A stretch of 64,000 nt of DNA from assembly GCA_041650515.1 (NCBI GenBank), contig JBAZLA010000003.1:30819-94818 (forward strand), in the 5' to 3' direction. The notes beneath the pieces were generated by a model that was not told the origin of the DNA, searched no databases, and worked only from the letters and a program-made list of their open reading frames with translations. This DNA is from Patescibacteria group bacterium. Its GTDB lineage: Bacteria; Patescibacteriota; Patescibacteriia; JACRDY01. The position numbers and the translations under genes are program-made. Each line of letters opens with the position of its first letter. Within the stretch, counting starts at the first letter, position 1. Shown piece after piece: positions 29,945 to 51,979 of this stretch.

Positions 29945-30021
29945 CGTCATTGCGAGCGGAGCGAAGCAATCTCCCGGATAATCCACCAGATTGCTTCGTC
30001 GCTACGCTCCTCGCAATGACG
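29945..30021. repeat. GC-rich palindromic intergenic element, family B (GTCATTGCGAG...CTCGCAATGAC)
   Basis: cgtcattgcgagcggagcgaagcaatc-tcccggataatccaccag-attgcttcgtcgctacgctcctcgcaatgacg between paralogs 1 and 2. Confidence 0.55.
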
Positions 30022-30031
30022 AGCAAATACT

Positions 30032-31723: not shown

Positions 31724-31730
31724 CCCCACT

Positions 31731-31949
31731 GTCATTCTGAACCCTTCGTTCCACCCAGGGCAGGCTTCGCAAGGGTCATCTCAATTTGTCATCCCGAGCG
31801 AACCCCGAGTGAGCTCCGCCAATTGGCGGAGCGAATCGAGGGGGAAGTCGAGGGATCGGCAGGGAATATAGTAAATCAAGTAATTATTATCTTAACCCTA
31901 ATATTATTATAAATTTTCATCCGATCCTTCGCTACGCTCAGGATGACAA
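31731..31949. repeat. Composite spacer holding three family-A palindromic elements (31731-31775, 31788-31863, inverted 31921-31949)
   Basis: gtcattctgaaccc...; gtcatcccgagcgaaccccgagtgagctccgccaattggcggagcgaatcgagggggaagtcgagggatcggcaggg; ccgatccttcgctacgctcaggatgac (reverse complement gtcatcctgagcgtagcgaaggatcgg). Confidence 0.5.
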
Positions 31950-31959
31950 ATAAAACCCT

Positions 31960-35290: not shown

Positions 35291-35296
35291 ACCCTG

Positions 35297-35393
35297 CGTC
35301 ATTGCGAGGAGCTCCGACGCAAAGTCGGAGCGACGAAGCAATCTGGTGGATTATCTCGGAGATTGCTTCTCCGCCTTCGGCGGATCGCAATGA
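35297..35393. repeat. GC-rich palindromic intergenic element, family B, opposite orientation to the 29945 copy
   Basis: gtcattgcgaggagctccgacgcaaagtcggagcgacgaagcaatc-tggtggattatctcgga-gattgcttctccgccttcggcggatcgcaatgac. The central 17 bp is the reverse complement of the 29945 centre. Confidence 0.55.
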
Positions 35394-35405
35394 CGATGAA
35401 ATATT

Positions 35406-37088: not shown

Positions 37089-38744
37089 ATGCCCGTTTGT
37101 CGACAATGTAAAAATTCGTTTGAATATCATCAGTCAGATCTTTTGTTTTATAAAAAGATTGATGTACCATCGCCCTTAGATTGCCCGGATTGTCGGCATC
37201 GTCAACGATCGGTTTGGCGTAATTCTTGTAAACTTTATCAGCGGCGATGTGATTTATGCAAAAAAAATATTGTTTCGGTTTTTTCAGCCGATAAGCCATA
37301 TTTAGTTTATTGTCATGATTGTTGGTTTTCAGATAAATGGGATGGCACTAGCTATAGTCGTGATTTTGATTTTTCTCGTCCATTTTTTTCTCAATTTGAA
37401 GAATTGGTCCTCGCCGCTCCTCAGTTGGCCATCAATAATGTTAATTCAGTTAATTCGGAATATACTCACCATGCTTCACGGAATAAAAATTGTTATTTGC
37501 AATTTGAAGGTTCGACAGAATGTGAAGATTGTTATTATGGTTGGGCATCATTTAGATCAAAAGATTGTATTGATGTAGTTTTTTGTTATGATTCTGAACT
37601 CTGTTATGAGTGTTGTGATATTGAGAATTGCTATGATTGTTCCTTTACTGATTATTCGCGTGGCTGTCACGATTGTTATTTTTGTTATGATTGTGTTGGT
37701 TGTACCAATTGTTTTGGTTGTGTCAATTTACGCAATGTCAAAAATTATTTATGGAATAAACCAGCCAGCCCGGAGGAGATTAGTCGAATTAAAGAGGGAT
37801 TAGCTGCTTTCTCGGCCGCGGCTGATATTAGAAAAAAATTTATTGATATTAAGGCGTTAGCCGTGGTGGCGCCAGCTCATAGCTTTAAGATAACTAATTC
37901 CACCGGTGATTATATTCGTTATTGCAAAAATAGCCATGATATTTATGATCTTTATAATGTTGAAGATTGCGGTTATGTTATCAATGGTGAAAGTATCAAA
38001 GATGCTTATGACTGCAGTGGCTACGGTGGTACACCCAGCGAATTAGCTTATCAATGTATCTCCACCGGTCGTGGTTCTTATGGTACCTTTTTTGATTCTT
38101 TGACCTGGGAAAGTCGAAACGTCTGGTATAGCCATTGTATTTTTACTTGTCAAGAAATTTTTGGTTGTGCTAGTTTGCATCGTAAAAAATATTGCCTTTT
38201 TAATAAACAATATAATGAAGATGAATATACTGAGTTGAAGGATAAGATAGTTAAACACATGAAACAGACCGGAGAATGGGGAGAATTTTTTCCTTACCAA
38301 CTGTCTTTGTTTGGTTATAATGAAAGTCGGTCACAGCTCGATTTGCCATTAACTAAAGAACAAGCATTAAAGTTTGGCGCTAAATGGAAAGAAGAAGATA
38401 GCGGCGCTTTTGGTCGGGAGACTGCTAGCTGGGATAGAGTTCCTGAATCAATTAAAGAAATTCGAGAAGACATTAGTTCTGAAATTTTAACCTGTAGCCA
38501 GTGTTCCCGTAATTATAAAATTTTAAAACCAGAATTTAATTTTTATCAACGCCAAAGTATTGCCTTGCCGCGTTCTTGTCCTGATTGTCGCTTAGAGCGC
38601 CGGTTAAATAGCCGAAATCCCAAGCGGTTATGGCGTCGTCAATGTATGCATGAAGGCTGCCAGAACGAATTTGAGACCACTTATGCGCCGGATCGACCGG
38701 AGAAAGTTTATTGCCAGGAGTGCTATCAAAAAGAAATATATTAA
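37089..38744 (+). CDS. Cys-rich double-zinc-ribbon repeat protein, paralog 6
   Basis: 3-nt spacer after paralog 5. MPVCRQCKNSFEYHQSDLLFYKKIDVPSPLDCPDCR...; ends YCQECYQKEIY. Confidence 0.75.
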   Translation: MPVCRQCKNSFEYHQSDLLFYKKIDVPSPLDCPDCRHRQRSVWRNSCKLYQRRCDLCKKNIVSVFSADKPYLVYCHDCWFSDKWDGTSYSRDFDFSRPFFSQFEELVLAAPQLAINNVNSVNSEYTHHASRNKNCYLQFEGSTECEDCYYGWASFRSKDCIDVVFCYDSELCYECCDIENCYDCSFTDYSRGCHDCYFCYDCVGCTNCFGCVNLRNVKNYLWNKPASPEEISRIKEGLAAFSAAADIRKKFIDIKALAVVAPAHSFKITNSTGDYIRYCKNSHDIYDLYNVEDCGYVINGESIKDAYDCSGYGGTPSELAYQCISTGRGSYGTFFDSLTWESRNVWYSHCIFTCQEIFGCASLHRKKYCLFNKQYNEDEYTELKDKIVKHMKQTGEWGEFFPYQLSLFGYNESRSQLDLPLTKEQALKFGAKWKEEDSGAFGRETASWDRVPESIKEIREDISSEILTCSQCSRNYKILKPEFNFYQRQSIALPRSCPDCRLERRLNSRNPKRLWRRQCMHEGCQNEFETTYAPDRPEKVYCQECYQKEIY

Positions 38745-38745
38745 T

Positions 38746-40380
38746 ATGACTAATTGCAAAAATTGTAACCAGCCATTTACCATTTATCCTGAGGATCAAA
38801 CATTTTACAGCAAGATTGGTGTATCAGAGCCAACAGAGTGTCCTGATTGCCGTCAACAGCGAAGGATTGCTTGGCGTAATTTTACTAATCTTTATGTTCG
38901 TCAATGTGAGCTGACCGGTAAAGACGTCGTTAGCCGTTTCAGCCCGCAGAGCAAAATTAAGGTCATAAATATTTATGATTGGAATTCCGATAAGTGGGAT
39001 CCGATCCGTTATGGCCGCGATTATGATCTGAGCCGGTCTTTTTTTGAACAATTTGTTGAGCTTTATAAAGATATACCACACTCAGCGATTTGGACTAATA
39101 ATTGTCATAATTGTGACTATACTAATTTATCGGCCTATTCTAACAATTGTTATATGGTTTTTGGTTGCGTTGGTAATGAAGATTGTTATTATGGTCATAT
39201 TGTTTGGAACTCTCAGGATTGCCGGGAATGTCTGTATATTCGTAAATGTGAATTATGCTTTAAGTGTATTGATTGTAACGAATCTTATGGGCTTTTTTGG
39301 TGTAGTGACTGTAGCGGCTGCAACGACTGTAAGTATTGTTATTATTGCAAAGGCTGCCAGGATTGCGTGGGTTGTTACGGTTTGATTAATCAGCATCAAC
39401 ACGTTTTGAATAAACCTTGTGCTAATGATGAAGAATATCATCGTGAGGTTGAAAAGTTTATGGCTCTTGGCGAGGCGGTGAGACAAGCTAAGATTAATGA
39501 GCTTAGAAAAGTTATGCCGGTTCGGGAAAGTACCATCATCGGTTGTGTAAATTGTACTGGCAACTATATTTATCGTTCTAAAAATTGCCAAGATTGTTAT
39601 GACACCAAGGTCTCTGAAGATACAAGATATTGCTATACTCTTCAGAATGGGACAGAGACTTATGATTGTTGTTACACCGCCTGGGAAATTGAGTTGTCTT
39701 ATAATATCTTGGCCAGCTATGGCTATCGTTTACTCTGCTGCCAGGGTTGTTTGGAAAATTCTAGCGAGTTAGATTATTGCCAAGAATGCAACGCAATTAA
39801 GAATTGTTTTGGCTGTATTGGTTTGCACAACAAAGAGCAATATTATATTTTGAACAAAAAATATTCTGAAGCAGAATATAAAGAATTAAGAGATAAAATT
39901 ATTAGTGCTCTAACGGTGAGTGGAGAATGGGGAAGTTTTTTTCCAATTGCCTGTTCGCCCTTTGGCTATAATGAGACTATGGCAGCGGAGTATTATCCAC
40001 TGATCAAGGAAGCGGCGTTAGCTAAAGGGTATAATTGGCTTGATCCGGATCAGCGTGATTATCAAGAGCAAACTTATCAAGTTCCAATCAAGATTGAAGA
40101 GGTGCAGGATGATGTTTTAACAGCAGTTTTAGCTTGCGAGCGTTGTCGTCGTAACTATAAAATTATTAAACAAGAATTAGATTTTTACCGTAAGTACGGT
40201 CTGCCTCTTCCTCGTAAATGTTTCCATTGCCGTCATGCTGCGCGGATGGAGAAACGCAACCCGCGTAAATTGTTTGAGCGTTCCTGCGCTCATTGTAATA
40301 AGACTATCCGGACTACTTATGCGCTGGATCGACCGGAGAAAGTTTATTGTGAGGAGTGCTATAATAGAGAAGTTTATTAA
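38746..40380 (+). CDS. Cys-rich double-zinc-ribbon repeat protein, paralog 7 (TAATATG junction with paralog 6)
   Basis: MTNCKNCNQPFTIYPEDQTFYSKIGVSEPTECPDCR...; ends YCEECYNREVY. Confidence 0.75.
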   Translation: MTNCKNCNQPFTIYPEDQTFYSKIGVSEPTECPDCRQQRRIAWRNFTNLYVRQCELTGKDVVSRFSPQSKIKVINIYDWNSDKWDPIRYGRDYDLSRSFFEQFVELYKDIPHSAIWTNNCHNCDYTNLSAYSNNCYMVFGCVGNEDCYYGHIVWNSQDCRECLYIRKCELCFKCIDCNESYGLFWCSDCSGCNDCKYCYYCKGCQDCVGCYGLINQHQHVLNKPCANDEEYHREVEKFMALGEAVRQAKINELRKVMPVRESTIIGCVNCTGNYIYRSKNCQDCYDTKVSEDTRYCYTLQNGTETYDCCYTAWEIELSYNILASYGYRLLCCQGCLENSSELDYCQECNAIKNCFGCIGLHNKEQYYILNKKYSEAEYKELRDKIISALTVSGEWGSFFPIACSPFGYNETMAAEYYPLIKEAALAKGYNWLDPDQRDYQEQTYQVPIKIEEVQDDVLTAVLACERCRRNYKIIKQELDFYRKYGLPLPRKCFHCRHAARMEKRNPRKLFERSCAHCNKTIRTTYALDRPEKVYCEECYNREVY

Positions 40381-40389: not shown

Positions 40390-40986
40390 ATGTCTTTGTC
40401 TCAATTACACAAAATTATTCGCGGTGTCCTAATTATTGCGCCAATTATGTTGGCCCTATTTTTAGTCCACCAAGATTTAGTTGTGTCAGGTCAGTTAGCC
40501 GCTGAGTATGATTTTAAGCATAATTCGCCGTTTATTCTGACTCTGGGCCCCAAAGAACGGATTTCGGAAATTCAGAAAGAAAATGGTGATTATTATCAAA
40601 GTTTGTATGATGATCCGATCTACTTTGATCTGCGGCTACCACGCAACTTTAAAATTGTTACTTTTTGGATTACTTATCGAGCTAATCCAGCTGGTCAGAT
40701 CAAACTGGCGGGTTTTGTTAATAAGGATCAGTGGCAATTTATTCAGCAGGAGTTTACTGAAGTAAAAGACTTGGGTAACGGTTGGCAGGAGGGTAAAGTG
40801 GTTTTTAATGTTTCCAAATTACCTTTTGTTAATCAAAAATATCAGATGATGATTTCTCTGACCGGAGAGAAAGGGAGTGTGCGCCAAGTAGATATTACTA
40901 ATATTCAGATTTTAGCTGAGCGTGAGCCGTTAACACTCGGTAATTTATTCTCTCGAATTGAGAAAAAAATAAATCGATATGAATAA
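40390..40986 (+). CDS. Hypothetical membrane-anchored protein
   Basis: N-terminal TM (LIIAPIMLALFLV) followed by a soluble domain. No family recognised. Confidence 0.4.
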   Translation: MSLSQLHKIIRGVLIIAPIMLALFLVHQDLVVSGQLAAEYDFKHNSPFILTLGPKERISEIQKENGDYYQSLYDDPIYFDLRLPRNFKIVTFWITYRANPAGQIKLAGFVNKDQWQFIQQEFTEVKDLGNGWQEGKVVFNVSKLPFVNQKYQMMISLTGEKGSVRQVDITNIQILAEREPLTLGNLFSRIEKKINRYE

Positions 40987-41170
40987 AGATCAATTTATTC
41001 GACAAATCATTCGCGACGTTTTTACTGTCTCAGTAATCACTTTGGTTTGTTTTGTTATTTTTGAGCTGATTAAATTTGGCTTCGTGATTAATTATTTTAA
41101 CCTTAATTTATTTTTATTTTGGTGTTTAATAATTGGTGTAGTTTATTTAATTATAGATAAGAAGGGTTAG
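40979..41170 (+). CDS. Small two-TM membrane protein (uncertain)
   Basis: 63-aa hydrophobic ORF overlapping the preceding stop by 8 nt. Confidence 0.25.
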   Translation: MNKDQFIRQIIRDVFTVSVITLVCFVIFELIKFGFVINYFNLNLFLFWCLIIGVVYLIIDKKG

Positions 41171-41172
41171 CT

Positions 41173-41598
41173 ATGATAATTACGCTTTGTGGTAGTGTTA
41201 AGTTTGCCGTGGAATTGGTTGATGTTTTTCATCAGCTGCAGCAGTTGGGGCACGAGCCTAAGATGGAAGAGCAAATGGCGCAGATCGCTGACGGCACGGC
41301 GCCAGAATTAATCGATGGGATTAAGAATGACCACGCTGAAGTTAAACGTAAATATGATTTTATTCGTCGGTGGTATCAGCTGATCTTAGGTAGCGATGCT
41401 ATTTTGGTCTGTAATTTTGATAAGGGTGAAATCAAAAATTATGTTGGTGGTAATACTCTGATGGAAATGGGTTTTGCTCATGTTAATAACAAGAAGGTTT
41501 TTTTACTTAATCCTATTCCGAATAATTTATCCTATACTTCAGAAATTAAAGCTATGACGGACGTGGTTATTAATGGTGATTTAACTAAAATTATTTAA
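41173..41598 (+). CDS. Nucleoside 2-deoxyribosyltransferase-like (Rossmann-like) protein, tentative
   Basis: ITLCGSVKF...ILVCNFD...GGNTLMEMGFAHVNNKKVFLLNP resembles NDT/DUF4406-type folds. Weak. Confidence 0.4.
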   Translation: MIITLCGSVKFAVELVDVFHQLQQLGHEPKMEEQMAQIADGTAPELIDGIKNDHAEVKRKYDFIRRWYQLILGSDAILVCNFDKGEIKNYVGGNTLMEMGFAHVNNKKVFLLNPIPNNLSYTSEIKAMTDVVINGDLTKII

Positions 41599-41603
41599 TT
41601 TTT

Positions 41604-42194
41604 ATGACCAAAATTATTTTAGCTACCACTTCGCCTTACCGAATTGCCGCTTTTAAAGAACTAAGCTTAGACTTTATCAGCGAAGGAAGTGATGTCGATG
41701 AAAAGTTTATTAACCGACCGACCAAGCCCCAGGAACTAGTTTTAACCCTAGCCCAGTTGAAAGCGGAAAACGTGGCTAAAAATCATCAAGAAGGTATCGT
41801 CATTGGCTTTGACTCCGTAGGTTACTTCCAGGGGCAGATTTTAGAGAAACCGCAGTCAGTGGCCGAGGGCAGAGAGAGACTGATCAAATTATCAGGTCAG
41901 AAGTACTTTTTTTATACTGGAGTTTGGCTGATTAATCTAGATAATCAGCGAGTTATTTCTCGTGCGGTGGAGACAGAAATAGATATGCGCCAGTTGAGTG
42001 AAGCAGAAATTGATAAATATATTGCCCAGGATCCTAATTTTAAGACTTATGCCCATGGTTATGATCCGGTTGGCCACTATAGCTCCACCTTTGCTCTAAA
42101 ACTGGTTGGGAGTTATAATAATTTTAGCTTAGGTATTCCGCTTGAGGCGATAGCGGAGATGTTAATTGAGACCGGTTACAAAATAACAAAATAA
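41604..42194 (+). CDS. maf: Maf-like nucleoside triphosphate pyrophosphatase
   Basis: ILATTSPYRIAAFKELSLDFISEGSDVDE matches the Maf N-terminal signature. Confidence 0.7.
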   Translation: MTKIILATTSPYRIAAFKELSLDFISEGSDVDEKFINRPTKPQELVLTLAQLKAENVAKNHQEGIVIGFDSVGYFQGQILEKPQSVAEGRERLIKLSGQKYFFYTGVWLINLDNQRVISRAVETEIDMRQLSEAEIDKYIAQDPNFKTYAHGYDPVGHYSSTFALKLVGSYNNFSLGIPLEAIAEMLIETGYKITK

Positions 42195-42195
42195 T

Positions 42196-42648
42196 ATGAT
42201 TGAAGACGTAATTATCAAAAAACTAGAAAAATACAGTGATGAGCGGGGTTGGTTAGTAGAGATTTATCGCGCTGATGAGCTTAATTTTGCGCCGGCCATG
42301 GCTTATATCTCTCAGACCAAGCCCGGAGTCGCTCGTGGGCCGCACGAACACAAAGGGCAGTCGGATGCTTTTGTTTTTGTTGGGCCGGGCACTTTTCGGC
42401 TCTTCCTCTGGGATAATCGGCAGGGTAGTAAGACTTATGGTGAGAGGCTAGAAGAAGATTTTGGTCAAGACAATCCGGCTTTAGTGATTATTCCGCCAGG
42501 AGTGGTCCATGGTTATAAATGTGTTTCTGATATTTTTGGGCAAGTGATTAATTTGCCAGACAGGCTTTATCGTGGTCAGAATAAACAAGATGATGTTGAT
42601 GAGATCAGATGGGAAAAAGATCCTAATTCACCATTTAAAATTGATTAA
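42196..42648 (+). CDS. RmlC-like cupin (dTDP-sugar 3,5-epimerase or 3,4-ketoisomerase family)
   Basis: ERGWLVEIYR...RGPHEHKGQSDAFVFVGPGTFRLFLWDNR resembles the RmlC/FdtA core. Short (150 aa). Confidence 0.55.
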   Translation: MIEDVIIKKLEKYSDERGWLVEIYRADELNFAPAMAYISQTKPGVARGPHEHKGQSDAFVFVGPGTFRLFLWDNRQGSKTYGERLEEDFGQDNPALVIIPPGVVHGYKCVSDIFGQVINLPDRLYRGQNKQDDVDEIRWEKDPNSPFKID

Positions 42649-42650
42649 TT

Positions 42651-43229
42651 ATGTTTGAAGCCGCTGACAAATTACATCCTCAAGATAAATTATTAAAACC
42701 GTTGGTTAGCCTGATACCTAAAGGTATTTTGCCTAATCATTTAACTGTTTTTCGCATGTTGGGTACGCCGTTAGTTTGGTATTTTTTAACGATTGATGAG
42801 TATTTTTGGGGTTTAATTTGGTTTTTGATTTTGGCATTTACCGATGCTTTAGACGGTGCCATGGCCCGGTTGCGTAGCCAAATTACCGTTTGGGGCAAAT
42901 TTTACGATCCGGTCGCCGACAAATTATTAGTTGTTAGCACGGTGATTATGATTATGGTTAAAAGGATAAACATCTTTATCTCGATCGCTATTATTTTTTT
43001 GGAGCTAGTTACTATCATGGGCGGGATAATTAGGAAAAAACGCAATATTGTTGTTCCAGCTAATAAGTGGGGTAAGATCAAAATGTTATTACAGACTGTT
43101 GGCGTTGGGTTAGTTTTGCTTGGTCTTTATTTAGATGTGCCTATTCTTTTTTTATATTCAACCCCGGCTTTTGGCTTGGCAATAATCTTTGCTATCCTTA
43201 GTTTATTGGCTGAGGGTTTTAAATCTTAA
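42651..43229 (+). CDS. CDP-alcohol phosphatidyltransferase family protein
   Basis: DALDGAMAR...G...YDPVADK (D-G-x2-A-R...G-x3-D-x3-D motif). Multi-TM. Confidence 0.7.
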   Translation: MFEAADKLHPQDKLLKPLVSLIPKGILPNHLTVFRMLGTPLVWYFLTIDEYFWGLIWFLILAFTDALDGAMARLRSQITVWGKFYDPVADKLLVVSTVIMIMVKRINIFISIAIIFLELVTIMGGIIRKKRNIVVPANKWGKIKMLLQTVGVGLVLLGLYLDVPILFLYSTPAFGLAIIFAILSLLAEGFKS

Positions 43230-43238
43230 AAAACAGAT

Positions 43239-44255
43239 ATGAAACTTTTAGTAACTGGTGGCGCCGGCTTTATTGGCTCAAACTTTATCCTTTATTGGCT
43301 AAAAAAATATCCTCGGGATCAGATTTTAAATTTGGACAGTTTAACATACGCTGGTAATTTAGAAAATTTGGTCGCAGTTGAAAAAAATGAAAATTATCGT
43401 TTTATTAAAGGTGACATTTGCGACCCGGCGGTGGTTAATCGATCGATGAAGGGGATCGATATTGTAGTTCATTTCGCGGCCGAATCACATGTTGACCGAT
43501 CGATTTTGGGTCCAGCAGTGTTTATCAAGACCAATATTATAGGGACTCAAGTGTTGCTTGATGTGGCTTTTAAAAATAAGGTTAAACGCTTTCATCACGT
43601 TTCGACCGATGAGGTGTTCGGTGCACTACGGCTGGGCACAAAAGAAAAGTTTGACGAAGACACGCTTTATGACCCACGTAGCCCATATTCAGCTTCTAAA
43701 GCCGCTTCGGACCACCTGGTACGGGCTTATGCCCATACTTTTAATCTGCCGTTTACAATTACTAATTGTTCCAATAACTTCGGCCCGTACCAATTTCCAG
43801 AAAAATTGATTCCATTAGCTATAACCAATTTGATTGAGGGTAAGAAAGTGCCAATCTATGGCGATGGGCTTTATGTTCGCGATTGGCTCTATGTTGATGA
43901 CCACTGCCGGGCAATTGATTTAGTTATTAAGCGCGGCAAGGTGGGAGAAACGTATTGTATTGGTGGGATGACTAAAGATGTTAGTAATCTGGAATTGGTA
44001 GAAAAAATTCTAAAAATTATGGGTAAAGATAAAAGCTATTTAGAATATGTTAAAGATCGGCCCGGGCATGATCGGCGGTATGCGGTTGATTGGTCTAAAG
44101 CTAAGAGAGAACTTGGCTATCGACCAGAGTATGATTTTGATACTTATTTGAAAAAGACTATAAAATGGTATTTGGACAATCCGGCCTGGCGGCAACGGGT
44201 TAAATCAGGGGAATACCAGAAGTATTATAAAAAGCAATACGGTTCCAATAAATAG
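43239..44255 (+). CDS. rmlB: dTDP-glucose 4,6-dehydratase
   Basis: MKLLVTGGAGFIGSNF (Rossmann), YSASKAASD (YxxxK), conserved C-terminal region. Confidence 0.85.
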   Translation: MKLLVTGGAGFIGSNFILYWLKKYPRDQILNLDSLTYAGNLENLVAVEKNENYRFIKGDICDPAVVNRSMKGIDIVVHFAAESHVDRSILGPAVFIKTNIIGTQVLLDVAFKNKVKRFHHVSTDEVFGALRLGTKEKFDEDTLYDPRSPYSASKAASDHLVRAYAHTFNLPFTITNCSNNFGPYQFPEKLIPLAITNLIEGKKVPIYGDGLYVRDWLYVDDHCRAIDLVIKRGKVGETYCIGGMTKDVSNLELVEKILKIMGKDKSYLEYVKDRPGHDRRYAVDWSKAKRELGYRPEYDFDTYLKKTIKWYLDNPAWRQRVKSGEYQKYYKKQYGSNK

Positions 44256-44349
44256 TATGCGGTATACAGTATATAGGGGCTAAGTCCAACAATCCGTGGA
44301 AATCAATTCCTGCATACTGTATACTAAGACCCGTATACTGCTAGAAAAT

Positions 44350-46023
44350 ATGCCTAAGTGCAGAAAATGTAACCAAGAATTTATTATTTCTGATTTTGAG
44401 ATAAAATTTTTAGATCGGATTAGTCCGGTTATCGGCGGTCGGAAATATCAGATTCCTCAGCCGGTTTTTTGTTCGGAGTGTCGTCTACGTTTTCGGACGG
44501 TTCATCGTAATGAGGCCTATCTATTTAAGAATGTTTCAGCCAAAAGCGGCCGGGAAATCATTTCTTTGTATTCGCCGGAAATGCCGTGGAATAAAGAATT
44601 AAAACTTTATACTCCAGAAGAGTGGTGGCAAGATGATTGGGACGGCCTTGATTATGGTCGTGATTTTGATTTCTCGCGGCCGTTTTTTGAACAGTTTAAC
44701 GAATTAGCTCGAGCCGTGCCGCGGTTAGCGTTAATGATCAGCAATTGCCAAAACTCCGACTATACTACTGGGACTGGTTATTGCAAAAACTGCTATCTCG
44801 TAAATTGTTCGGAAAATGATGAAGATTGTTATTATGGTAAGCTGATTCAGAGCAGCCGTGATATTATGGATTCAGATTTTGTTTACAAATCGGAGCTCTG
44901 CTACGGTTGTTTTAATATTACCGAATGTTATCATTGCTTGTATCTTTCTTATGGTTTACATTGTCACGATTGTTATTTTTCGGAAAATTTACATGGTTGT
45001 AGCAGCTGTCTTTTTTGTACCAATCTGACAAACCAAGAATATTGCATTCGGAACAAATCGGTGACTAAAGAAGATTTTGAAAAAGCCAAAGATGAGGTTT
45101 TAGGTTCACGGACTAAGGTTAGCCAGGCGGTTAAGATCCTCAATGAATTGCGTCAAAAACGCATTCATAAGTATGCAGCGGTAGTTAAGTGTCAAAATTC
45201 AACTGGCGATTTTTTGACCAATTGTAAAAATTGTACAGATTGCTATGACTGTAATGATAGCGAGGATTGCAAATACGTTGTTGTCGGAGTTAACGTCAAA
45301 GATTTGGTTGATTGTTCAAATATGTATTTAAAGCAGGAGCTGGCTTATCAGGTTTTGGGCACAATTGATATTTACGACGTTATATTTTCTCTTTATATTT
45401 TTTATAGTCAACATATCATGTACAGCGAAAGTTGCTGGAGTAGTAAAAATTTATTTGGTTGCTGCGGCCTGCGCAATAAAGAGTATTGTGTTTTTAATAA
45501 ACAATATACTGAAGAGGAATATAATAAGCTGGTGCCTAGAATTATTGAACATATGCAAAAAACAGGTGAATGGGGCAATTATTTTCCTGCTCAATATTCG
45601 CCTTTTCCTTACAATCACACCGTAGCGCATGATTATTTATCGTTAACTAAAGAAGAGACGCTAGAACTTGGTTGTTATTGGTTGGAGGTTGGTGCTAAGG
45701 AAAAATTACCGGCCACCAGCGAACTACCTGATAAAATCAGCGAGGCGACTGATGGTGTGATTAATGAAATGTTTGCTTGCCGAGAATGCGGCCGTAATTA
45801 TAAAATTGTCAAACAAGAATTGATTCGTTTGCGTCAGTTGCAAATGCCGCTGCCAGATAAATGTTCTTATTGTCGCCAGGCCGAACGGATGCAGAAACGC
45901 AATCCGCGTCGGTTATATGATCGAGTTTGTAATAAATGTAGTAAAGAAATTAAAACCACTTATCCGCCAACCCGTCCGGAACAGATTTACTGTGAGGAGT
46001 GTTATCAGAAGGAGATTTATTAG
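44350..46023 (+). CDS. Cys-rich double-zinc-ribbon repeat protein, paralog 8
   Basis: MPKCRKCNQEFIISDFEIKFLDRISPV...; C-terminal CRECGRNYKIVKQEL...YCEECYQKEIY. The track ORF start 44296 is a likely upstream extension. Confidence 0.7.
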   Translation: MPKCRKCNQEFIISDFEIKFLDRISPVIGGRKYQIPQPVFCSECRLRFRTVHRNEAYLFKNVSAKSGREIISLYSPEMPWNKELKLYTPEEWWQDDWDGLDYGRDFDFSRPFFEQFNELARAVPRLALMISNCQNSDYTTGTGYCKNCYLVNCSENDEDCYYGKLIQSSRDIMDSDFVYKSELCYGCFNITECYHCLYLSYGLHCHDCYFSENLHGCSSCLFCTNLTNQEYCIRNKSVTKEDFEKAKDEVLGSRTKVSQAVKILNELRQKRIHKYAAVVKCQNSTGDFLTNCKNCTDCYDCNDSEDCKYVVVGVNVKDLVDCSNMYLKQELAYQVLGTIDIYDVIFSLYIFYSQHIMYSESCWSSKNLFGCCGLRNKEYCVFNKQYTEEEYNKLVPRIIEHMQKTGEWGNYFPAQYSPFPYNHTVAHDYLSLTKEETLELGCYWLEVGAKEKLPATSELPDKISEATDGVINEMFACRECGRNYKIVKQELIRLRQLQMPLPDKCSYCRQAERMQKRNPRRLYDRVCNKCSKEIKTTYPPTRPEQIYCEECYQKEIY

Positions 46024-46024
46024 T

Positions 46025-47692
46025 ATGCCAAATTGTCAAAACTGCCAAAAAGAATTTAAGGTTTTTCCTGAAGAGCTGCCATTCTTTAAGAAAATGGATT
46101 TACCCTTGCCAAAACTCTGCCCAACTTGTCGGGCGCAACGGCGTTGGGCTTTTCGCAACCAAAGTAAGCTCTATAAGCGGAAATGCGATTTTACCGGCGA
46201 AAAGATGGTCTCACTTTATGCTGATGATTCGCCCTTTAAAGTGTATAAGGAAGATATTTGGTGGAGTGACAAGTGGGATCCGATGAGTTATGGTCGGGAG
46301 TTTGATTTTTCTCGTCCATTTTTTGATCAGTTCCACGATTTACGGTTGGCCGTGCCGCGGCGGGGGATGCAGCAGGATGGCACCAATACTAATTGCGATT
46401 ATACGACTTTTGGCATGAGTAATAAAAATTGTTACTTAGTTTTTGCTGGTTTTTATTGTGAAGATGTTTATTATTCGGCCTGGACCGGTATGTCGCGGGA
46501 TTGTCTGGATTGCTTAGTGGTGATAAACGGTGAATTAACCTACGAATGTGTAGAATGCACCAAATGTTATCATTGTCTTTATTGTAAAGATTGTGTTAAT
46601 TGTTTAGATAGTTATCTGTTGGAGAATTGCTCTAACTGCCAAAATTGCATTGCTTGTAAAAATTTACAGAATAAAAAGTATTACGTTTATAATCAAAAAG
46701 TCACGCCGGAGGAATTTGAAAAATTAAAGCAAAAATTAGAGACTGGTCCGGTAGATACCGAAAGAGAAAAATTCGATCAATGGAAATTAAGTTTTCCGTG
46801 TCGTTATACTCATATGGTCGCTTCGGAAAATTGCGACGGTGATTATATTGAGCACGGTAAAAATTGTCATGACTGCTTTGGTATTCTGCAAGGGGCGGAA
46901 AACTGTTGGCATTGTCAGATGACCGGCGCGCAAGCTAAGGAAGCAATTGATTGCTCGATGGCTGGCATGGATAGTCAATTAACTTATGAGCTACATGCTA
47001 GTGTTGGTGGTTATTATACGGCTTTTTGTAATTTTTCTCGTCATGGCAAAAATGTTTATTATTGCGATTCAATGAGTTCTTGCCAAGATTGTCTTGGCTG
47101 TATTGGTTTGCAGCACAAAAAGTTTTGTCTTTTGAATAAACAGTATAGCGCCGGAGAATATAGCCAGATGTTGCCGAAGGTCATTGAATATTTAAAAAAA
47201 ACCGGGGAGTGGGGAGAATTTTTTCCGATTAAGCACTCGCCCTTCCCTTTTAATGATACTTTGTCGCAAGAATTTTTTCCTATCAGCCGGGAGGAGGCGT
47301 TGGCCAAGAGTTATAGTTGGCGCGATGATGAAGACATAATTTACCAAAAACAAATCTATAAAGTTGATGCTGACATCACCAAAGTTAAAGATGATATTCT
47401 AGAAGCAGTTTTAGTCTGCCAGGGGTGTGGTAAAAATTATAAAATTATCCCGCAAGAATTAAGATTTTACCATAAGTTAAAAATAGCGATCCCCAAACTT
47501 TGTCCAGACTGTCGCCATACCCACCGAATGCGGCAAAGAAATCCGATGCAGTTGTATCACCGGCAATGTATGTGCGAGAGTACTAAACACGGCCATAAAG
47601 GTCGTTGTCCACAGGAATTTAAAACTACTTATGCCCTTGATCGCCAGGAATTGATTTACTGCGAAGAGTGTTATCAGAAAGAATTGTACTAA
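46025..47692 (+). CDS. Cys-rich double-zinc-ribbon repeat protein, paralog 9 (TAGTATG junction with paralog 8)
   Basis: MPNCQNCQKEFKVFPEELPFFKKMDLPLPKLCPTCR...; ends YCEECYQKELY. Confidence 0.75.
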   Translation: MPNCQNCQKEFKVFPEELPFFKKMDLPLPKLCPTCRAQRRWAFRNQSKLYKRKCDFTGEKMVSLYADDSPFKVYKEDIWWSDKWDPMSYGREFDFSRPFFDQFHDLRLAVPRRGMQQDGTNTNCDYTTFGMSNKNCYLVFAGFYCEDVYYSAWTGMSRDCLDCLVVINGELTYECVECTKCYHCLYCKDCVNCLDSYLLENCSNCQNCIACKNLQNKKYYVYNQKVTPEEFEKLKQKLETGPVDTEREKFDQWKLSFPCRYTHMVASENCDGDYIEHGKNCHDCFGILQGAENCWHCQMTGAQAKEAIDCSMAGMDSQLTYELHASVGGYYTAFCNFSRHGKNVYYCDSMSSCQDCLGCIGLQHKKFCLLNKQYSAGEYSQMLPKVIEYLKKTGEWGEFFPIKHSPFPFNDTLSQEFFPISREEALAKSYSWRDDEDIIYQKQIYKVDADITKVKDDILEAVLVCQGCGKNYKIIPQELRFYHKLKIAIPKLCPDCRHTHRMRQRNPMQLYHRQCMCESTKHGHKGRCPQEFKTTYALDRQELIYCEECYQKELY

Positions 47693-47702
47693 AATTTAAT
47701 TT

Positions 47703-48725
47703 ATGACCCTAATGCCAAAGGAAGAAAAAATTTTAAAATCGATTATTGTGCCATCAGAAAGCGACCCACACAAACCGGAATTCCCACCGGGCCATCCCAA
47801 ATTTCCGGCAACGCCGACCTATAAAATTAAAGTGTCGGGTTTTAGTAATGTTTGGCTTAAAGATGAGAGTATTAATCCAACCGGCACTCATAAAGACCGG
47901 CTGGCTTGGGAGATGGTAGTAACTTATAAGCAGTTACTTTTAGCTAAGAAAGAGGGTCGTTTGAAGGCGATACCCCAGATGTCAATTATTAGCTCCGGTT
48001 CAGCCGCTAATGCCGTTCAGTCCATGTTGCGACGTCATAGTCTGCCCAATCTTAAAGTTTTAGTTGATTATCGAACCGACGACAAGATTAAAAAATCATT
48101 GCGTCAAATTGGTTGCGGTATCTACGAAACGGACCTTTCCAAGAGGATTTTATACCGAGATGATATTCTAAAACTTACTGATAATCTCGGCGGCATTGAT
48201 ATCACTTCTGACGATTCATTGGGCCCACATAGTATTTTTTATGATTGGATGAGTTATGAGATTATTAATCAGAATGCTGATTATGTTTTTATTCCCTATG
48301 GAACAGGTAATTTGTATGAAAATATTATTAACGTAGCGGTCCGAGAAGTAAGAAGTTTTCTGATTCACGACCGTCGCTTTAAAGGTAATGTGAATAAAAT
48401 CCGTAATTGTAACTTTTTTGGCGCGACGACTAATAACCCCAATACCAAGGCCGATAAATTGTATTCACCCCATTTGCCGTTTATTCATTTCGACAATAAT
48501 TGGATCCAACTGGCCATTGCCAAGGGTTATATCGGTAATGAATCTAATGTTTATATTATCCAGGAGAGCTATTTAGATGAAGCGATGAAATTAGCTAAAA
48601 AGAATAAGGTAACTTGTGAGCCGTCGGGTATTGCTGGCTTAGCCTTGATGTTGCAGCTCAAAGATAGGCTACCGAGGGACAAAAAAATGTTAATTGTTAA
48701 TACTGGAAAAACTAAATTAAAATAA
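47703..48725 (+). CDS. PLP-dependent enzyme, fold-type II (threonine synthase / cysteine synthase / TrpB-like PALP family)
   Basis: KDESINPTGTHKDR contains the canonical PLP-lysine motif (cf. NPTGSFKDR). Begins 10 nt after paralog 9. Confidence 0.6.
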   Translation: MTLMPKEEKILKSIIVPSESDPHKPEFPPGHPKFPATPTYKIKVSGFSNVWLKDESINPTGTHKDRLAWEMVVTYKQLLLAKKEGRLKAIPQMSIISSGSAANAVQSMLRRHSLPNLKVLVDYRTDDKIKKSLRQIGCGIYETDLSKRILYRDDILKLTDNLGGIDITSDDSLGPHSIFYDWMSYEIINQNADYVFIPYGTGNLYENIINVAVREVRSFLIHDRRFKGNVNKIRNCNFFGATTNNPNTKADKLYSPHLPFIHFDNNWIQLAIAKGYIGNESNVYIIQESYLDEAMKLAKKNKVTCEPSGIAGLALMLQLKDRLPRDKKMLIVNTGKTKLK

Positions 48726-49588
48726 TGAAAATTCTTGTTGTCTACAATCCCGTTTCCGGGAAAAAGAAAAATATTCAGCAGTCGCTCAAAAAAGCTTTAG
48801 TGGCTATTGATTATGATTGGCTGGAGACCAATACGGCTGGTGATTATTTAGACGGCGTTGTTGGTTCGATCTACCAGCGGGTGATTGTGGTGGGCGGTGA
48901 TGGCACAGTGCATCAAGTAGCAAATTGGATTATTAAAAATAATTATGATTTAGTCTTGGGCATCATTCCTCAGGGAAGTGCTAATTTGTTAGCTACTTGT
49001 TTTAAAATTCCTCATTTTTTGGGTCCAGCATTAAAGATTGCCCTGGGTGCCAATTATCAAACCATCGATGTTGGTCTGGTTAATAAAGAAAAATATTTTT
49101 TAATTGCCGCGGGGCTGGGCTATGACGCCTGGGTGATTAAAAACACGAAGCGGGCGTGGAAACGTTTGTTTGGTTTTTGGGCTTATACCGTTGCTTTATT
49201 TCAGGGTTTGTTTAAACTTAAAGAAGCCAATTTTTCCTTAACTATTGATGGTATCCGTCACCAATATCACGCCAAAACAGTTTTTATTATGAATTTTGGC
49301 AAATTTTTAGGATTTAATTTTGGGCCAGATATTTCTTATACTGATGGTTACCTAAGTTTAGCAATTGTCCGGCCGGTTAAACTGATTGATTACTGGATTA
49401 TGCTTGGTCGGCTAATCGGTCGACAATACTTTTGGCAAAAACGGCTAGAATATTTTAAATTTAAACGTTTACAAATTAACTATAACAAAAAGGTTTTGGC
49501 TCAGCTAGACGGCGAAGATCTATTATTGGGTAGTCCGGTGGAGATCGAAGTAGTGGATAAAAAAATAAAAATTGCTGGTAAATTATGA
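48725..49588 (+). CDS. DAGK-catalytic-domain lipid kinase (YegS/BmrU family)
   Basis: KILVVYNPVSGKKK...VIVVGGDGTVHQV (GGDGT motif). Confidence 0.7.
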   Translation: MKILVVYNPVSGKKKNIQQSLKKALVAIDYDWLETNTAGDYLDGVVGSIYQRVIVVGGDGTVHQVANWIIKNNYDLVLGIIPQGSANLLATCFKIPHFLGPALKIALGANYQTIDVGLVNKEKYFLIAAGLGYDAWVIKNTKRAWKRLFGFWAYTVALFQGLFKLKEANFSLTIDGIRHQYHAKTVFIMNFGKFLGFNFGPDISYTDGYLSLAIVRPVKLIDYWIMLGRLIGRQYFWQKRLEYFKFKRLQINYNKKVLAQLDGEDLLLGSPVEIEVVDKKIKIAGKL

Positions 49589-50286
49589 TTAATTATCAAG
49601 ATCGACAACGTCAGTTAATTGGTCGAATAAAAAGTGATTCAGACTTAAAATATAATCAGGCGACGATTATTGCGATGGAACCCAATAAGGTCGCCTATAA
49701 TAATTCTCAGGAAATTACTCTAACCTTGGTGGTTTTTGTGCCAGCTAGTCTTGGCCAGGTAATTCAGGAAAAAATTATTTTGCCATTGCAAAAAATTGAG
49801 CCAGAACATTTTTATTCTCCGCTAAAATCGTTGCATTTAACCATTAAAAATGTCAGAGCCGCCAGCCGGCCGCCGACGTTTACTGCCGAGGAGGTTAAAA
49901 AAGTCGACGAGTTATTCAAAAAGATTGTTCCCAATCTTTTGTCATTTGATTTTACCCTCGAAGGCCTGATGCCTTTTGCTACTAGTGCTTCCCTGATGGG
50001 TTATTGCGACGAGAGGTTGAAAGATCTAGTTATTGGTCTAGATGCTGGTTTGCGCCAGATTGGTGTGCCCGATAATAAGAAATATTTTTCTAATGAGATA
50101 TTTTTTGGTAATATTAGTCTATGCCGCTTTGTTCATGAGCCATCGTTGGCCTTTATGAATAAAGTTGAGGCGATGGCTCGAATATCAGTTGGTAACTTAC
50201 CGATTAAACAAATTAGCTTAATCACCTGTAACAAAGTTTGTAGTCAAGAGAGTCAGAAAATTATTGGTACTTATAATTTAAAGTAA
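49585..50286 (+). CDS. Hypothetical protein, possibly 2H-phosphoesterase-like
   Basis: One H-x-T-x motif (SLHLTIK). The second motif is degenerate. Weak. Confidence 0.35.
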   Translation: MINYQDRQRQLIGRIKSDSDLKYNQATIIAMEPNKVAYNNSQEITLTLVVFVPASLGQVIQEKIILPLQKIEPEHFYSPLKSLHLTIKNVRAASRPPTFTAEEVKKVDELFKKIVPNLLSFDFTLEGLMPFATSASLMGYCDERLKDLVIGLDAGLRQIGVPDNKKYFSNEIFFGNISLCRFVHEPSLAFMNKVEAMARISVGNLPIKQISLITCNKVCSQESQKIIGTYNLK

Positions 50287-50287
50287 T

Positions 50288-51130
50288 ATGAAAAAAGTTT
50301 TAATCATCGGCGCGGCGGGTATGCTTGGTCAATATTTGGCTAAGATTTTTACTAACGAAGATTTGTATTTAGTTGATCGCGATAAGCTAGATATTATTAA
50401 TCCAGCCGCAGTTCTAAAATTAGTTAGGGATTTAAAGCCCCAGGTTATTATTAATGCTGCGGCTTATAATGCCGTTGATTTGGCCGAAACTGATTTTGTC
50501 ACCGCGCAGCAGGTTAATGGCTATGCAGTTGGTTCTTTGGCTAAAGCGGCTAAAGAGGTTGACGCTATTTTAATTCACTATAGCACCGATTATGTTTTCG
50601 ATGGGGAAAAAGAGGAGGGTTATGTTGAAACTGATTTGCCTAATCCTATTTCTAGATATGGCCAGTCAAAGTATTTGGGCGAGCAGGAATTGCAGGAAAA
50701 TTGTGATAAATATTATTTAATTCGGTTGTCGCGACTATTTGGCCGGGTTGGTGATGGCGTGGGAGTCAAAGAAAGTTTTGTTGATAAAATTTTAAAACTA
50801 ACTCAGAATAAAAGCGAACTGGAAATAATTGATGAGGAAGTATCGAGCCCAACTTACGCGGCTGATTTAGCCGAATTTACCTTGGCATTGCTAGTCAAAG
50901 GTGAGCCATTTGGTATTTATCATGGTGCTAATAGCGGTAGCTGCACTTGGTTTGGGCTGGCCCAAGAGGTTGCCAAAATAAGGGGAATTGATATAAGATT
51001 AATTCCAGTCTCCGGAGCTAAGCTAGCTCGAACGGCTAAACGGCCCAGATATTCAATCCTGCTCAATACTAAGTTTATCCCGATGAGATCTTGGCACGAG
51101 GCGCTAGCGGAGTATTTAAACCATGTCTAA
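50288..51130 (+). CDS. rmlD: dTDP-4-dehydrorhamnose reductase-like NAD(P)-dependent reductase
   Basis: MKKVLIIGAAGMLGQYL Rossmann, YGQSKYLGE (YxxxK), about 280 aa. Adjacent to rmlA. Confidence 0.65.
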   Translation: MKKVLIIGAAGMLGQYLAKIFTNEDLYLVDRDKLDIINPAAVLKLVRDLKPQVIINAAAYNAVDLAETDFVTAQQVNGYAVGSLAKAAKEVDAILIHYSTDYVFDGEKEEGYVETDLPNPISRYGQSKYLGEQELQENCDKYYLIRLSRLFGRVGDGVGVKESFVDKILKLTQNKSELEIIDEEVSSPTYAADLAEFTLALLVKGEPFGIYHGANSGSCTWFGLAQEVAKIRGIDIRLIPVSGAKLARTAKRPRYSILLNTKFIPMRSWHEALAEYLNHV

Positions 51131-51857
51131 ATTTAGTTTTATGAAGGGTATAATTTTAGCCGGCGGTCACGCCACTCGATTGCGGCCATTGACCAAAGTC
51201 ACTTCCAAACAATTATTGCCGATTTACGACAAGCCGATGATTTTTTATCCGCTTAATACTTTACTTAAAGCTGGGATAAAAGATATTTTGATAATCTTGG
51301 CGCCGGAGAATGCTGGTCAGTTCTTGAATCTGCTTGGTTCTGGTCGGGAGTTCGGCGCTAATTTTAGTTACGAAATTCAGGAGTCGCCGCGGGGCTTAGC
51401 TGATGCTTTTATTGTCGGCGAAAATTTTATTGGCGACGACAATGTCACTATGATTTTGGGTGATAATATTGTTGGCGATGATTTATCCGAGGATATTGCT
51501 AGTTTTCAAAAAGGTGGTCGGATATTCTGTAAAAAAGTTCCCGATCCCGAGCGATTTGGCGTAGCGGCTTTTGATGATCAGATGAAAGTAACCAAGATTA
51601 TTGAAAAACCAAAAGAATGGATTTCTGACTATGCCATTATTGGTGTTTATGTTTATGATAACCGAGTGATTGAGCTCGCTAAAAAGGTCAAGCCATCCGA
51701 CCGTGGCGAGATCGAAATTACCGAATTACATAATGCTTATTTAGAGCTTGGCGAATTGGACGTTCGCTTTATTAAAGGGGAGTGGTTTGATGCTGGGACG
51801 TTTGATTCACTTCTAGCGGCGAGTAATTTTGTTGCCGGGAAATCAAAAAAGCAATAA
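51123..51857 (+). CDS. rmlA: Glucose-1-phosphate thymidylyltransferase (alternative ATG at 51141)
   Basis: MKGIILAGGHATRLRPLTKVTSKQLLPIYDKPMIFYPLNTLLKAGIKDILII is the classic RmlA N-terminus. Confidence 0.75.
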   Translation: MSKFSFMKGIILAGGHATRLRPLTKVTSKQLLPIYDKPMIFYPLNTLLKAGIKDILIILAPENAGQFLNLLGSGREFGANFSYEIQESPRGLADAFIVGENFIGDDNVTMILGDNIVGDDLSEDIASFQKGGRIFCKKVPDPERFGVAAFDDQMKVTKIIEKPKEWISDYAIIGVYVYDNRVIELAKKVKPSDRGEIEITELHNAYLELGELDVRFIKGEWFDAGTFDSLLAASNFVAGKSKKQ

Positions 51858-51894
51858 ATAGTACACAGTACTTAGCACAGAGTGCACAATAATA

Positions 51895-51926
51895 ATACCC
51901 CGAGCCTTAATATGGAGTCGGGGTAT
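51895..51926. terminator. Hairpin between convergent rmlA and the minus-strand PEGA gene
   Basis: ataccccga-gccttaatatggag-tcggggtat: 9-bp stem, AT-rich flanks. Confidence 0.45.
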
Positions 51927-51979
51927 TATAGTTTAAAAAGGAAGTTGAAGTACTCCGTACTCTATACTGTGCGTTGCTA

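Follow-up and report, generated by a model that had tools for sequence, protein, structure and literature searches.

Cys-rich paralogs probably lodged at existing gene-block boundaries of a conserved rml-containing envelope neighbourhood in Patescibacteria

Nine paralogous Cys-rich genes (P1 to P9) are interspersed with dTDP-rhamnose (rml) and other putative cell-envelope genes in a 64,000-nucleotide stretch of contig JBAZLA010000003.1 (hereafter the window), which belongs to a metagenome-assembled genome (MAG) of Patescibacteria, also called the Candidate Phyla Radiation (CPR), with locus tags of the series WC480_. Our comparison with related genomes makes it likely, with good confidence, that insertion or relocation brought the Cys-rich genes to operon boundaries that were already there, without a shared rhamnose pathway. 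The synteny comparison that an initial annotation of the window had recommended was carried out, and the relatives keep the backbone of the neighbourhood with fewer or no Cys-rich genes at the two sites that these genes occupy in the window. Most of the copies pair with orthologs in a relative and not with their array neighbours, and the data give no support to a functional link between the Cys-rich proteins and rhamnose.

The arrangement would represent a conserved cell-envelope neighbourhood of a small Patescibacteria clade, with a backbone made up of a LytR-CpsA-Psr (LCP) ligase, a membrane protein of 739 amino acids (aa), a GT-C-type glycosyltransferase-like protein (GT-C), membrane proteins of 198 and 63 aa, an RmlC-like cupin and RmlB, the latter optionally preceded by a CDP-alcohol phosphatidyltransferase, and then a DAGK-type kinase, RmlD and RmlA. 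An unrelated, CPR-wide, multi-copy Cys-rich family would have lodged at two older gaps between packed gene blocks, one after the GT-C gene and the other after rmlB. The resident copies would be ancient paralogs whose membership of the locus varies among relatives by relocation, gain or loss, and their joint transcription with envelope genes would most likely be a by-product of a compact genome rather than the sign of a shared pathway. The genes concerned are listed here by window position, with family assignments taken from Pfam and NCBIfam model scores compared with the cut-offs of the models.

18122-19570, minus strand: LCP family protein (PF03816, 135.9 bits, plus LytR_C), bounding the conserved envelope neighbourhood on its upstream side
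19892-24087, plus strand: block of NrdR, NrdD, an NrdG-type radical-SAM activase and AAA_18 (Pfam), between the LCP gene and the gene of the 739-aa protein
24100-26319, minus strand: 739-aa polytopic membrane protein with about 18 hydrophobic segments
26650-28287, plus strand: 545-aa GT-C-like (PMT_2/ArnT-like) polytopic protein with about 13 hydrophobic segments
28289-29938, plus strand: Cys-rich P1, beginning 1 nt past the GT-C stop codon
30032-31723, plus strand: Cys-rich P2 (paralog alignment)
31960-33645, plus strand: Cys-rich P3 (paralog alignment)
33647-35290, plus strand: Cys-rich P4, beginning 1 nt past the P3 stop codon (start codon checked)
35406-37085, plus strand: Cys-rich P5, at the head of a tightly packed block reaching rmlB
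37089-38744, plus strand: Cys-rich P6 (paralog alignment)
38746-40380, plus strand: Cys-rich P7 (paralog alignment)
40390-40986, plus strand: 198-aa protein (u198) with one N-terminal transmembrane segment, a backbone member
40979-41170, plus strand: conserved 63-aa protein with two transmembrane segments (open reading frame and tblastn)
41173-41598, plus strand: 141-aa protein, at this position in the window only and absent from L001 and L002
41604-42194, plus strand: Maf-family nucleotide pyrophosphatase (PF02545, 120.6 bits), absent at this position in L001 and L002
42196-42648, plus strand: RmlC-like cupin, 150 aa (PF00908, 54 bits)
42651-43229, plus strand: CDP-alcohol phosphatidyltransferase, PgsA-like (PF01066, 104.9 bits)
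43239-44255, plus strand: RmlB, dTDP-glucose 4,6-dehydratase (TIGR01181)
44350-46023, plus strand: Cys-rich P8, the most conserved among the paralogs searched
46025-47692, plus strand: Cys-rich P9, beginning 1 nt past the P8 stop codon
47703-48725, plus strand: pyridoxal-phosphate (PLP)-dependent enzyme of the PALP fold (PF00291, 69 bits), at this position in the window only
48725-49588, plus strand: DAGK/YegS-family lipid kinase (PF00781 and PF19279)
49585-50286, plus strand: 233-aa protein, at this position in the window only (in L081 and L082 the kinase gene adjoins rmlD)
50288-51130, plus strand: RmlD, dTDP-4-dehydrorhamnose reductase (TIGR01214)
51123-51857, plus strand: short RmlA-like glucose-1-phosphate thymidylyltransferase, 244 aa (PF00483)

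The relatives compared were WCT37 (loci L001, L081 and L028), the Falkowbacteria genome HY933 (L002) and a 2.5-kb metagenome contig (L082); the sequences come from MAGs, with two of the contigs short. They share a backbone of LCP, the 739-aa membrane protein, GT-C, the RmlC-like cupin, RmlB, the DAGK-type kinase, RmlD and RmlA. WCT37 carries, in this order, RelA/SpoT, EngA, LCP (minus strand), a 737-aa membrane protein (minus strand), GT-C and orthologs of P3 and P4, followed by u198, a 60-aa protein, the RmlC-like cupin, the CDP-alcohol phosphatidyltransferase, RmlB and orthologs of P8 and P9, and then by the kinase, RmlD, RmlA, a PEGA protein (minus strand), MurA and an S41 peptidase. HY933 runs from the membrane protein (minus strand) through GT-C, a single P3 ortholog, u198, a 61-aa protein and the RmlC-like cupin to RmlB and the kinase, with nothing separating the last two, and RmlB, the kinase (69% identical) and RmlD are contiguous in L082. 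At the GT-C and rmlB sites, respectively, the Cys-rich copies number one and none in HY933, two and two in WCT37, and seven and two in the window, the P3 type being the sole copy kept downstream of GT-C in all three genomes. According to pairwise identities, the window, WCT37 and HY933 are about equidistant and L082 is about equally far from all three, distances that fit an outgroup position; because L082 is outgroup-like and lacks P8 and P9, the absence of these two genes is favoured as the ancestral state. A metagenome scan with the kinase alignment recovered the WCT37 contig once more and L082 as its only close relatives, while the 19 other loci that it returned were discarded as uninformative, since they hold distant YegS-like kinases without rml neighbours.

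The initial annotation had described the rml genes as split by the array. P8 and P9 do sit among them, but the kinase was already placed between rmlB and rmlD in the relatives: its orthologs in L001, L002 and L082 (69-73% identical) occupy that position wherever the contig allows, and the presence of the kinase there in all four genomes implies that the rml set had been divided in two before the Cys-rich genes came. Other genes of the same stretch are private to the window, namely nrdR-nrdD-nrdG with AAA_18 (the LCP and membrane-protein genes are adjacent in L001), the 141-aa gene with Maf, the PLP-enzyme gene (in L001 the kinase comes next after the P9 ortholog) and the 233-aa gene, and such unrelated, lineage-specific insertions indicate that the region tolerates insertions. 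The CDP-alcohol phosphatidyltransferase gene is present in WCT37 (52% identity) and absent from HY933.

The history of the copies themselves was followed in a neighbor-joining tree of the window paralogs, the WCT37 and HY933 copies, four copies from another contig of the window genome and an array from Peribacteria. Of the nine window paralogs, seven (P2, P3, P4, P6, P7, P8 and P9) pair with WCT37 orthologs, to which they are 60-82% identical, and not with their neighbours in the array, and P3 pairs with its HY933 ortholog too; P1 and P5 have no close ortholog in either genome (best match of P1, 41%). Orthologs of P3 stand at the GT-C site in L001 (70%) and L002 (64%), that of P4 (61%) is beside the P3 ortholog in WCT37, and those of P8 (82%) and P9 (73%) are found in the equivalent place in WCT37. 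P2 (68%) and P6 (60%) have their orthologs next to each other on another WCT37 contig (L017), with no rml genes nearby, and the ortholog of P7 (61%) is on a third (L080), neither locus having flanking genes in common with the window. Among the homologues listed from genomes labelled Peregrinibacteria, Gracilibacteria and Abawacabacteria, those of P8 are 48-64% identical, and those of P3, from lineages of the same types, 39-46%. The conservation of P8 suggests that the paralogs are differentiated, non-interchangeable components, and the copies may best be described as old, differentiated paralogs, with a separate course of gathering, dispersal or loss in every lineage.

These data bear directly on a possible growth of the array in place through tandem duplication, with the smaller numbers of the relatives resulting from loss or dispersal from a large ancestral array. 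Tandem arrays are usual in the family, unequal recombination could be favoured by the related palindromes between the array genes, and gain and loss of P1, P2 and P5-P7 are both compatible with the copy numbers; nonetheless, we regard growth in place as unlikely. The window paralogs are 31-40% identical to P1, with no pair above about 45%, and the listed stretches of shared DNA are mostly 60-75% identical, so low an identity between paralogs that any duplication must long predate these species. The pairing of seven paralogs with WCT37 orthologs instead of array neighbours, the conservation of the P8 type across CPR classes and the lack of P8 and P9 in L082, about equidistant from the other three genomes, also argue against it. 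The proposal of the initial annotation that the array had been inserted or expanded into an older rhamnose cluster stands as far as insertion or relocation is concerned, while a recent expansion in place is not supported, given protein identities of 31-45% and orthologs at other loci.

The genomic context of the family elsewhere was surveyed in GTDB species representatives, in which 78 family loci from 71 assemblies were inspected, with flanks of at most 10 kb. A context of rml, GT-C and kinase genes was found at the WCT37 locus (L028) alone; the 77 other loci, in 70 other assemblies, have no adjacent rml, GT-C or kinase genes, even at relaxed thresholds. A single locus (L067) holds an RmlB homologue, separated from its Cys-rich gene by 7.6 kb and eight genes, and a neighbourhood combining Cys-rich, rml and GT-C genes was seen in the window, WCT37 and HY933 (one copy) only. 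The nearest P8 orthologs outside WCT37 (63-64% identical, L102 and L105) occur in arrays in an unrelated context, flanked by genes of GreA, RRF, an aminoacyl-tRNA synthetase, UvrC, S2, EF-Ts and GAPDH, and a 57% identical P3 ortholog in L102 is likewise in an unrelated context. In one Magasanikbacteria locus (L049), a u198 homologue of 23% identity (2380-2937) lies two genes downstream of the Cys-rich gene, the single such case among the 77 other loci.

Tandem arrays are the norm for the family, reaching 11 copies in a 21.6-kb locus, and two neighbours recur with them. One is a TrmB-family helix-turn-helix (HTH) protein of about 250 aa, present at 28 loci and in many cases encoded inside the array on the strand opposite to it. 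The second neighbour, a P-loop ATPase of about 745 aa, is present at 23 loci, where it usually closes the array on the 3' side, with weak similarity to DUF87/HerA, TrwB, TraD and VirD4 and weak matches to the generic HerA and mad8 models of PADLOC. Both neighbours recur across Peregrinibacteria, Gracilibacteria and other CPR lineages (for example, L007:11764-14004 and L009:14092-14850). The window contains neither a TrmB-type HTH neighbour nor a HerA/VirD4-like ATPase. A second array of the window genome, with at least eight copies on a contig of 127,914 bp, ends at a HerA/VirD4-like ATPase (L103:13464-15689), which is followed by RuBisCO and nucleoside-salvage genes, and one further copy on that contig (WC480_03940) raises the total of the genome to at least 18. 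At about 1.67 kb each, these copies would take up about 30 kb of a genome assumed to measure about 1 Mb. The recurrent partners may point to a separate, putatively cytoplasmic system of many distinct paralogous subunits, and the array context with TrmB and HerA/VirD4-like proteins is a better lead to the function of the family than the rhamnose context, which should not be used for its annotation.

The sequences of the paralogs are in keeping with this separation. The nine proteins measure 544-563 aa, with 6.6-9.0% Cys, and no transmembrane segment was detected in them by a simple hydropathy scan. All share an N-terminal CxxC...CxxC module, two internally repeated central Cys-rich stretches, each ending in a motif of the NLRN..YC..NKQ..EEY type with a helix, another zinc-ribbon module (NYKI..E...PLPR.CP.CR) and a near-invariant C-terminus (VYC(E/Q)ECY.KE.Y). 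The N-terminal, penultimate and C-terminal CxxC...CxxC modules weakly resemble zf_Tbcl (PF13451), zf_Tbcl_2 (PF23477) and TIGR04272 (CxxC-x17-CxxC), treble-clef models that span just 35-48 residues of proteins of about 550 aa; no family model describes the whole architecture, and no Pfam or NCBIfam match was obtained past the zinc-finger domains. Lacking transmembrane segments and matches beyond zinc fingers, the paralogs bear nothing that marks them as glycosyltransferases or sugar enzymes, and they are predicted to be cytoplasmic zinc-ribbon proteins.

The AlphaFold2 model of P3, built with 61 homologues, is a confident one and reached a predicted local distance difference test score (pLDDT) of 84 and a predicted template modelling score (pTM) of 0.87. 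A Foldseek comparison of this model with the PDB yielded nothing significant (best E-value 5.9), and the P3 sequence has no solved relative among PDB sequences. The Foldseek rows of acetyl- and succinyltransferases, which we take to be left-handed beta-helix proteins, are meaningless at E-values of 5.9-9.9 and template modelling scores of 0.10 or less and were not used. PADLOC defence-system models matched neither P3 nor P8. Searches with the family matched more than 5,200 clusters at 90% identity, and all source-supplied names among the 120 matches listed are Patescibacteria lineages. Our literature searches returned nothing on this family; the Cys-rich proteins described in Peribacteria are large (580-3860 aa) and mostly carry a predicted signal peptide (PMC4736985), and both size and signal peptide set them apart from the paralogs analysed here. 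Abundant, organised in arrays and structurally unmatched, the family poses a more interesting problem than the rml locus in which it was noticed.

Several observations weigh against insertion without a shared pathway. The place of the P3 type downstream of GT-C is stable in three genomes and that of P8-P9 in two, the gaps of 1-10 nt to envelope genes (GT-C/P1, P7/u198 and P9/PLP enzyme) make shared transcripts very probable, and P5-P7 and P8-P9 head the two rml-containing blocks. Additionally, P1, P2 and P5-P7 could represent either a gain in the window or dispersal or loss in the relatives, which are themselves MAGs with, in two cases, short contigs. The positional part of these observations could be explained by synteny alone, because the genomes are close enough for P3 to keep its position in three of them and P8-P9 in two.

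The same observations are what could be expected if the Cys-rich proteins, at least those of the P3, P8 and P9 types, act in an envelope glycoconjugate or lipid head-group pathway, where they could serve as co-expressed, zinc-dependent cytoplasmic scaffolds or regulators of rhamnose-polymer assembly. The initial annotation had offered a role of this kind, which agrees with the gaps of 1-10 nt, the lack of predicted intrinsic terminators in the short gaps, and the positions of the P3 ortholog after GT-C and of P8-P9 between rmlB and the kinase. We hold it to be quite improbable, since all 77 other family loci lack adjacent rml, GT-C and kinase genes, which leaves the proposal without support from the family at large. 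Furthermore, P3 (57%) and P8 (63-64%) have orthologs in housekeeping contexts, rmlB and the kinase follow each other without P8-P9 in L002 and L082, the orthologs of P2, P6 and P7 are elsewhere in WCT37, the window genome itself holds a second array of at least eight copies beside a HerA/VirD4-like ATPase, and the proteins lack membrane segments and resemble sugar or lipid enzymes neither in family models nor, at a significant level, in fold. A narrower version, in which P3-type and P8-P9 genes are lineage-specific recruits that control or scaffold the synthesis of a rhamnose-containing surface polymer, is highly unlikely in our view; if it were true, their source would be a CPR-wide, multi-paralog zinc-protein system normally partnered with HerA/VirD4-like ATPases and TrmB regulators.

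The source of the window also raises the matter of a chimeric contig joined through repeated Cys-rich genes, as it is a MAG and repeated gene families can mislead assemblers. Such an artefact is extremely unlikely: the copies are too diverged to collapse, the repeat search listed no long near-identical DNA repeat, the WCT37 order is the same in two sources (JGI Ga0172379_10002615 and NCBI JBAZBH010000010), and the window proteins are listed on one contig of 472,517 bp and under four sources. Insertion or relocation at existing operon boundaries remains the reading that we favour.

The boundaries in question can be recognised in the spacing of the genes, which overlap or stand no more than 10 nt apart in four blocks (GT-C to P1; P3 to P4; P5 to RmlB, 11 genes; P8 to RmlA, seven genes). 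Four structured spacers between these genes, characterised by minimum free energy (MFE) and z-score, are as follows.

29939-30031, unstranded: GC-rich palindromic spacer of 93 nt with the GTCATTGCGAG motif (MFE -40.9 kcal/mol, z -6.7)
31724-31959, unstranded: structured spacer of 236 nt (MFE -87 kcal/mol, z -6.2)
35291-35405, unstranded: GC-rich palindromic spacer of 115 nt (MFE -59.9 kcal/mol, z -6.9)
44256-44349, unstranded: hairpin spacer of 94 nt after rmlB, at the boundary holding P8-P9 (MFE -26.5 kcal/mol, z -2.8 to -4.0)

The element at 35291-35405 is related, in inverted orientation, to that at 29939-30031 (inverted repeat I1, 93% complementary over 44 nt), and the spacer at 31724-31959 holds pieces related to 26429-26620 upstream of GT-C (inverted repeats I8 and I13). 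Within the window, GTCATTGCGAG and a close variant are confined to the array spacers and the sequence just upstream of GT-C, and variants of GTCATTGCGAG also occur between genes of the second array (L103, about 1348-1507 and 4897-5022). GC-rich palindromes with GTCATTGCGAG or GTCATCCCGAG, similar to repetitive extragenic palindromic (REP) elements, have z-scores of about -7. The resemblance to REP-like elements extends to their form, imperfect GC-rich palindromes of 90-115 nt between co-directional genes, and to the grouping into within-genome sequence families of very stable hairpins; they differ in that the GTCATYSCGAG type was seen here only in or next to the two Cys-rich arrays of the genome.

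Palindromes also mark the corresponding spacers of the relatives, in sequences that differ from those of the window. The one after rmlB reaches -45.6 kcal/mol (z -8.0) in L001 and -83.8 kcal/mol (z -14.9) in L002, the one after the P3 ortholog about -41 kcal/mol in both, and no hairpin of this sort is present in the rmlB-kinase spacer of L082. Long, near-perfect palindromes of the relatives are located at L002:8428-8552 and 5844-5916 and at L001:16584-16733, 13400-13496 and 11681-11758, and the elements 3' of the P3 ortholog in WCT37 and HY933 have a CACAGAU-rich sequence in common. Other structured spacers of the window were found at 508-772, 8842-8892, 51858-51979 and 63470-63540. The idea that the palindromes are specific insertion scars was softened, as they occur elsewhere and at boundaries of relatives without insertions, and the structured spacers are better read as elements that generally mark the limits of gene blocks, where the Cys-rich genes would have been placed. 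A consensus terminator scan of 26000-54000 placed all terminator-like sites inside coding sequence and none in the short gaps; with promoter-like sites unspecific and terminator-like sites intragenic, these scans were not adopted as a map of transcription units. Judging by the gaps of 1-10 nt, the Cys-rich genes are probably co-transcribed with the envelope genes.

Regarding the gene content, the initial annotation had been right in substance. Family-model scores confirmed Maf, the RmlC-like cupin, the CDP-alcohol phosphatidyltransferase and rmlB between P7 and P8, as well as the PLP enzyme, the DAGK-family kinase, rmlD and rmlA after P8-P9, although four genes (of 198, 63, 141 and 233 aa) had been overlooked. 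The plus strand from 26650 to 51857 carries 22 genes, not the 25 reported, and their common orientation is nothing special, as GC skew is positive across the full 64 kb and the plus strand carries most window genes. Both of the large polytopic proteins announced upstream of the array are real, the 739-aa one being encoded on the minus strand. The PMT/ArnT-like DE motif ascribed to one of them exists as an N-terminal 'SPDE' within 'NSPDEAANYFW' of the 545-aa GT-C-like protein, whose PMT_2 score of 23.3 bits is under the Pfam threshold of 26.1; its orthologs in L001 and L002 are 48-53% identical, and that of L002 (HY933) has a precomputed PMT_2 match (PF13231).

Other members of the neighbourhood also have orthologs in the relatives. 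The WCT37 ortholog of LCP is 55% identical and directly adjoins the 737-aa membrane protein, and orthologs of the 739-aa protein, which has no Pfam or NCBIfam match, are 46-50% identical and equivalently placed in L001 and L002. No family model matched u198 or the 233-aa protein; u198 has orthologs of 51-54% identity in L001 and L002, and tblastn aligned the 63-aa gene with the 60-aa (L001) and 61-aa (L002) genes at 51-52% identity (E-values 1e-14 to 3e-16). The 141-aa protein showed merely a weak Nuc_deoxyrib_tr match (E-value 0.079). Rfam and tRNA scans detected no RNA genes within the array/rml region. Farther upstream, a structured intergenic stretch at 9438-10043 holds two tRNA-Met (CAT) genes and one tRNA-Leu (CAA) gene on the minus strand, two RelA/SpoT-type genes (HD, RelA_SpoT, TGS) lie in tandem at 11939-13420 and 13401-14894, and the gene that follows them (14900-16447, 515 aa) has no Pfam match. 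The nrdD gene listed above is that of the anaerobic ribonucleotide reductase.

The rml genes could be assigned with different degrees of precision. RmlB and RmlD pass their equivalog cut-offs (TIGR01181, 469.1 bits against 365.1; TIGR01214, 267.8 bits against 224.05), while RmlA scores 298.2 bits with TIGR01207 against a cut-off of 360.65, covering positions 1-243 of 286 with the C-terminus missing, and is above threshold for PF00483 (200 bits). The WCT37 ortholog of RmlA is 75% identical and has the same short form, and the short forms of both the cupin (150 aa) and RmlA (244 aa) are kept in relatives. The cupin, with orthologs of 64-71% identity in the relatives, obtains 42 bits with the RmlC equivalog model TIGR01221 against a cut-off of 155.75 and is above threshold for PF00908 (54 bits against 27) and FdtA (30.6 bits against 23). 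Its best solved relative is 2b9u, a chain deposited as a hypothetical dTDP-4-dehydrorhamnose 3,5-epimerase (E-value 1.6e-9, residues 5-113 aligned). The His of the cupin 'RG.H' motif aligns with 2b9u, and the Lys of the 2b9u 'QGK' motif, a position that we take to be conserved in RmlC, is not matched by Lys. By these scores, the cupin is a member of the RmlC/FdtA superfamily without an assignable activity.

RmlB orthologs are 82% (WCT37), 62% (HY933) and 50% (L082) identical to that of the window. Taken pairwise, RmlB identities fall from 82% between the window and WCT37 to 62-68% with HY933 and about 50% with L082, and the flanking kinase stays at 69-78% in all pairs. The history of RmlB may thus differ from that of its neighbours, for example by replacement or by exchange together with P8. 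The scan of the genes between 26650 and 51857 brought out no rhamnosyltransferase of the GT-A or GT-B type.

Compared with known rmlABCD (rfb) clusters, the window has an RmlB and an RmlD that pass equivalog cut-offs together with RmlA-like and RmlC-like proteins, and it resembles the rhamnose cell-wall polysaccharide loci of Gram-positive bacteria in having an LCP ligase, a putative GT-C-type protein and MurA nearby. It departs from rmlABCD clusters in the short RmlA (244 aa), below the RfbA cut-off, in the cupin, far below that of RmlC, and in the lipid kinase that always stands between rmlB and rmlD in the window and its relatives. The useful outcome of the comparison is negative, as the rhamnose context is no guide to the function of the Cys-rich proteins. 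The rml genes are often split or dispersed in other bacteria, rmlD being apart from rmlACB in streptococci and the genes being dispersed in mycobacteria, so the split observed here is not unusual in itself. Overall, the locus is an ordinary one: envelope loci commonly receive lineage-specific insertions, rml clusters are commonly split, and comparison with the relatives accounts for the present arrangement.

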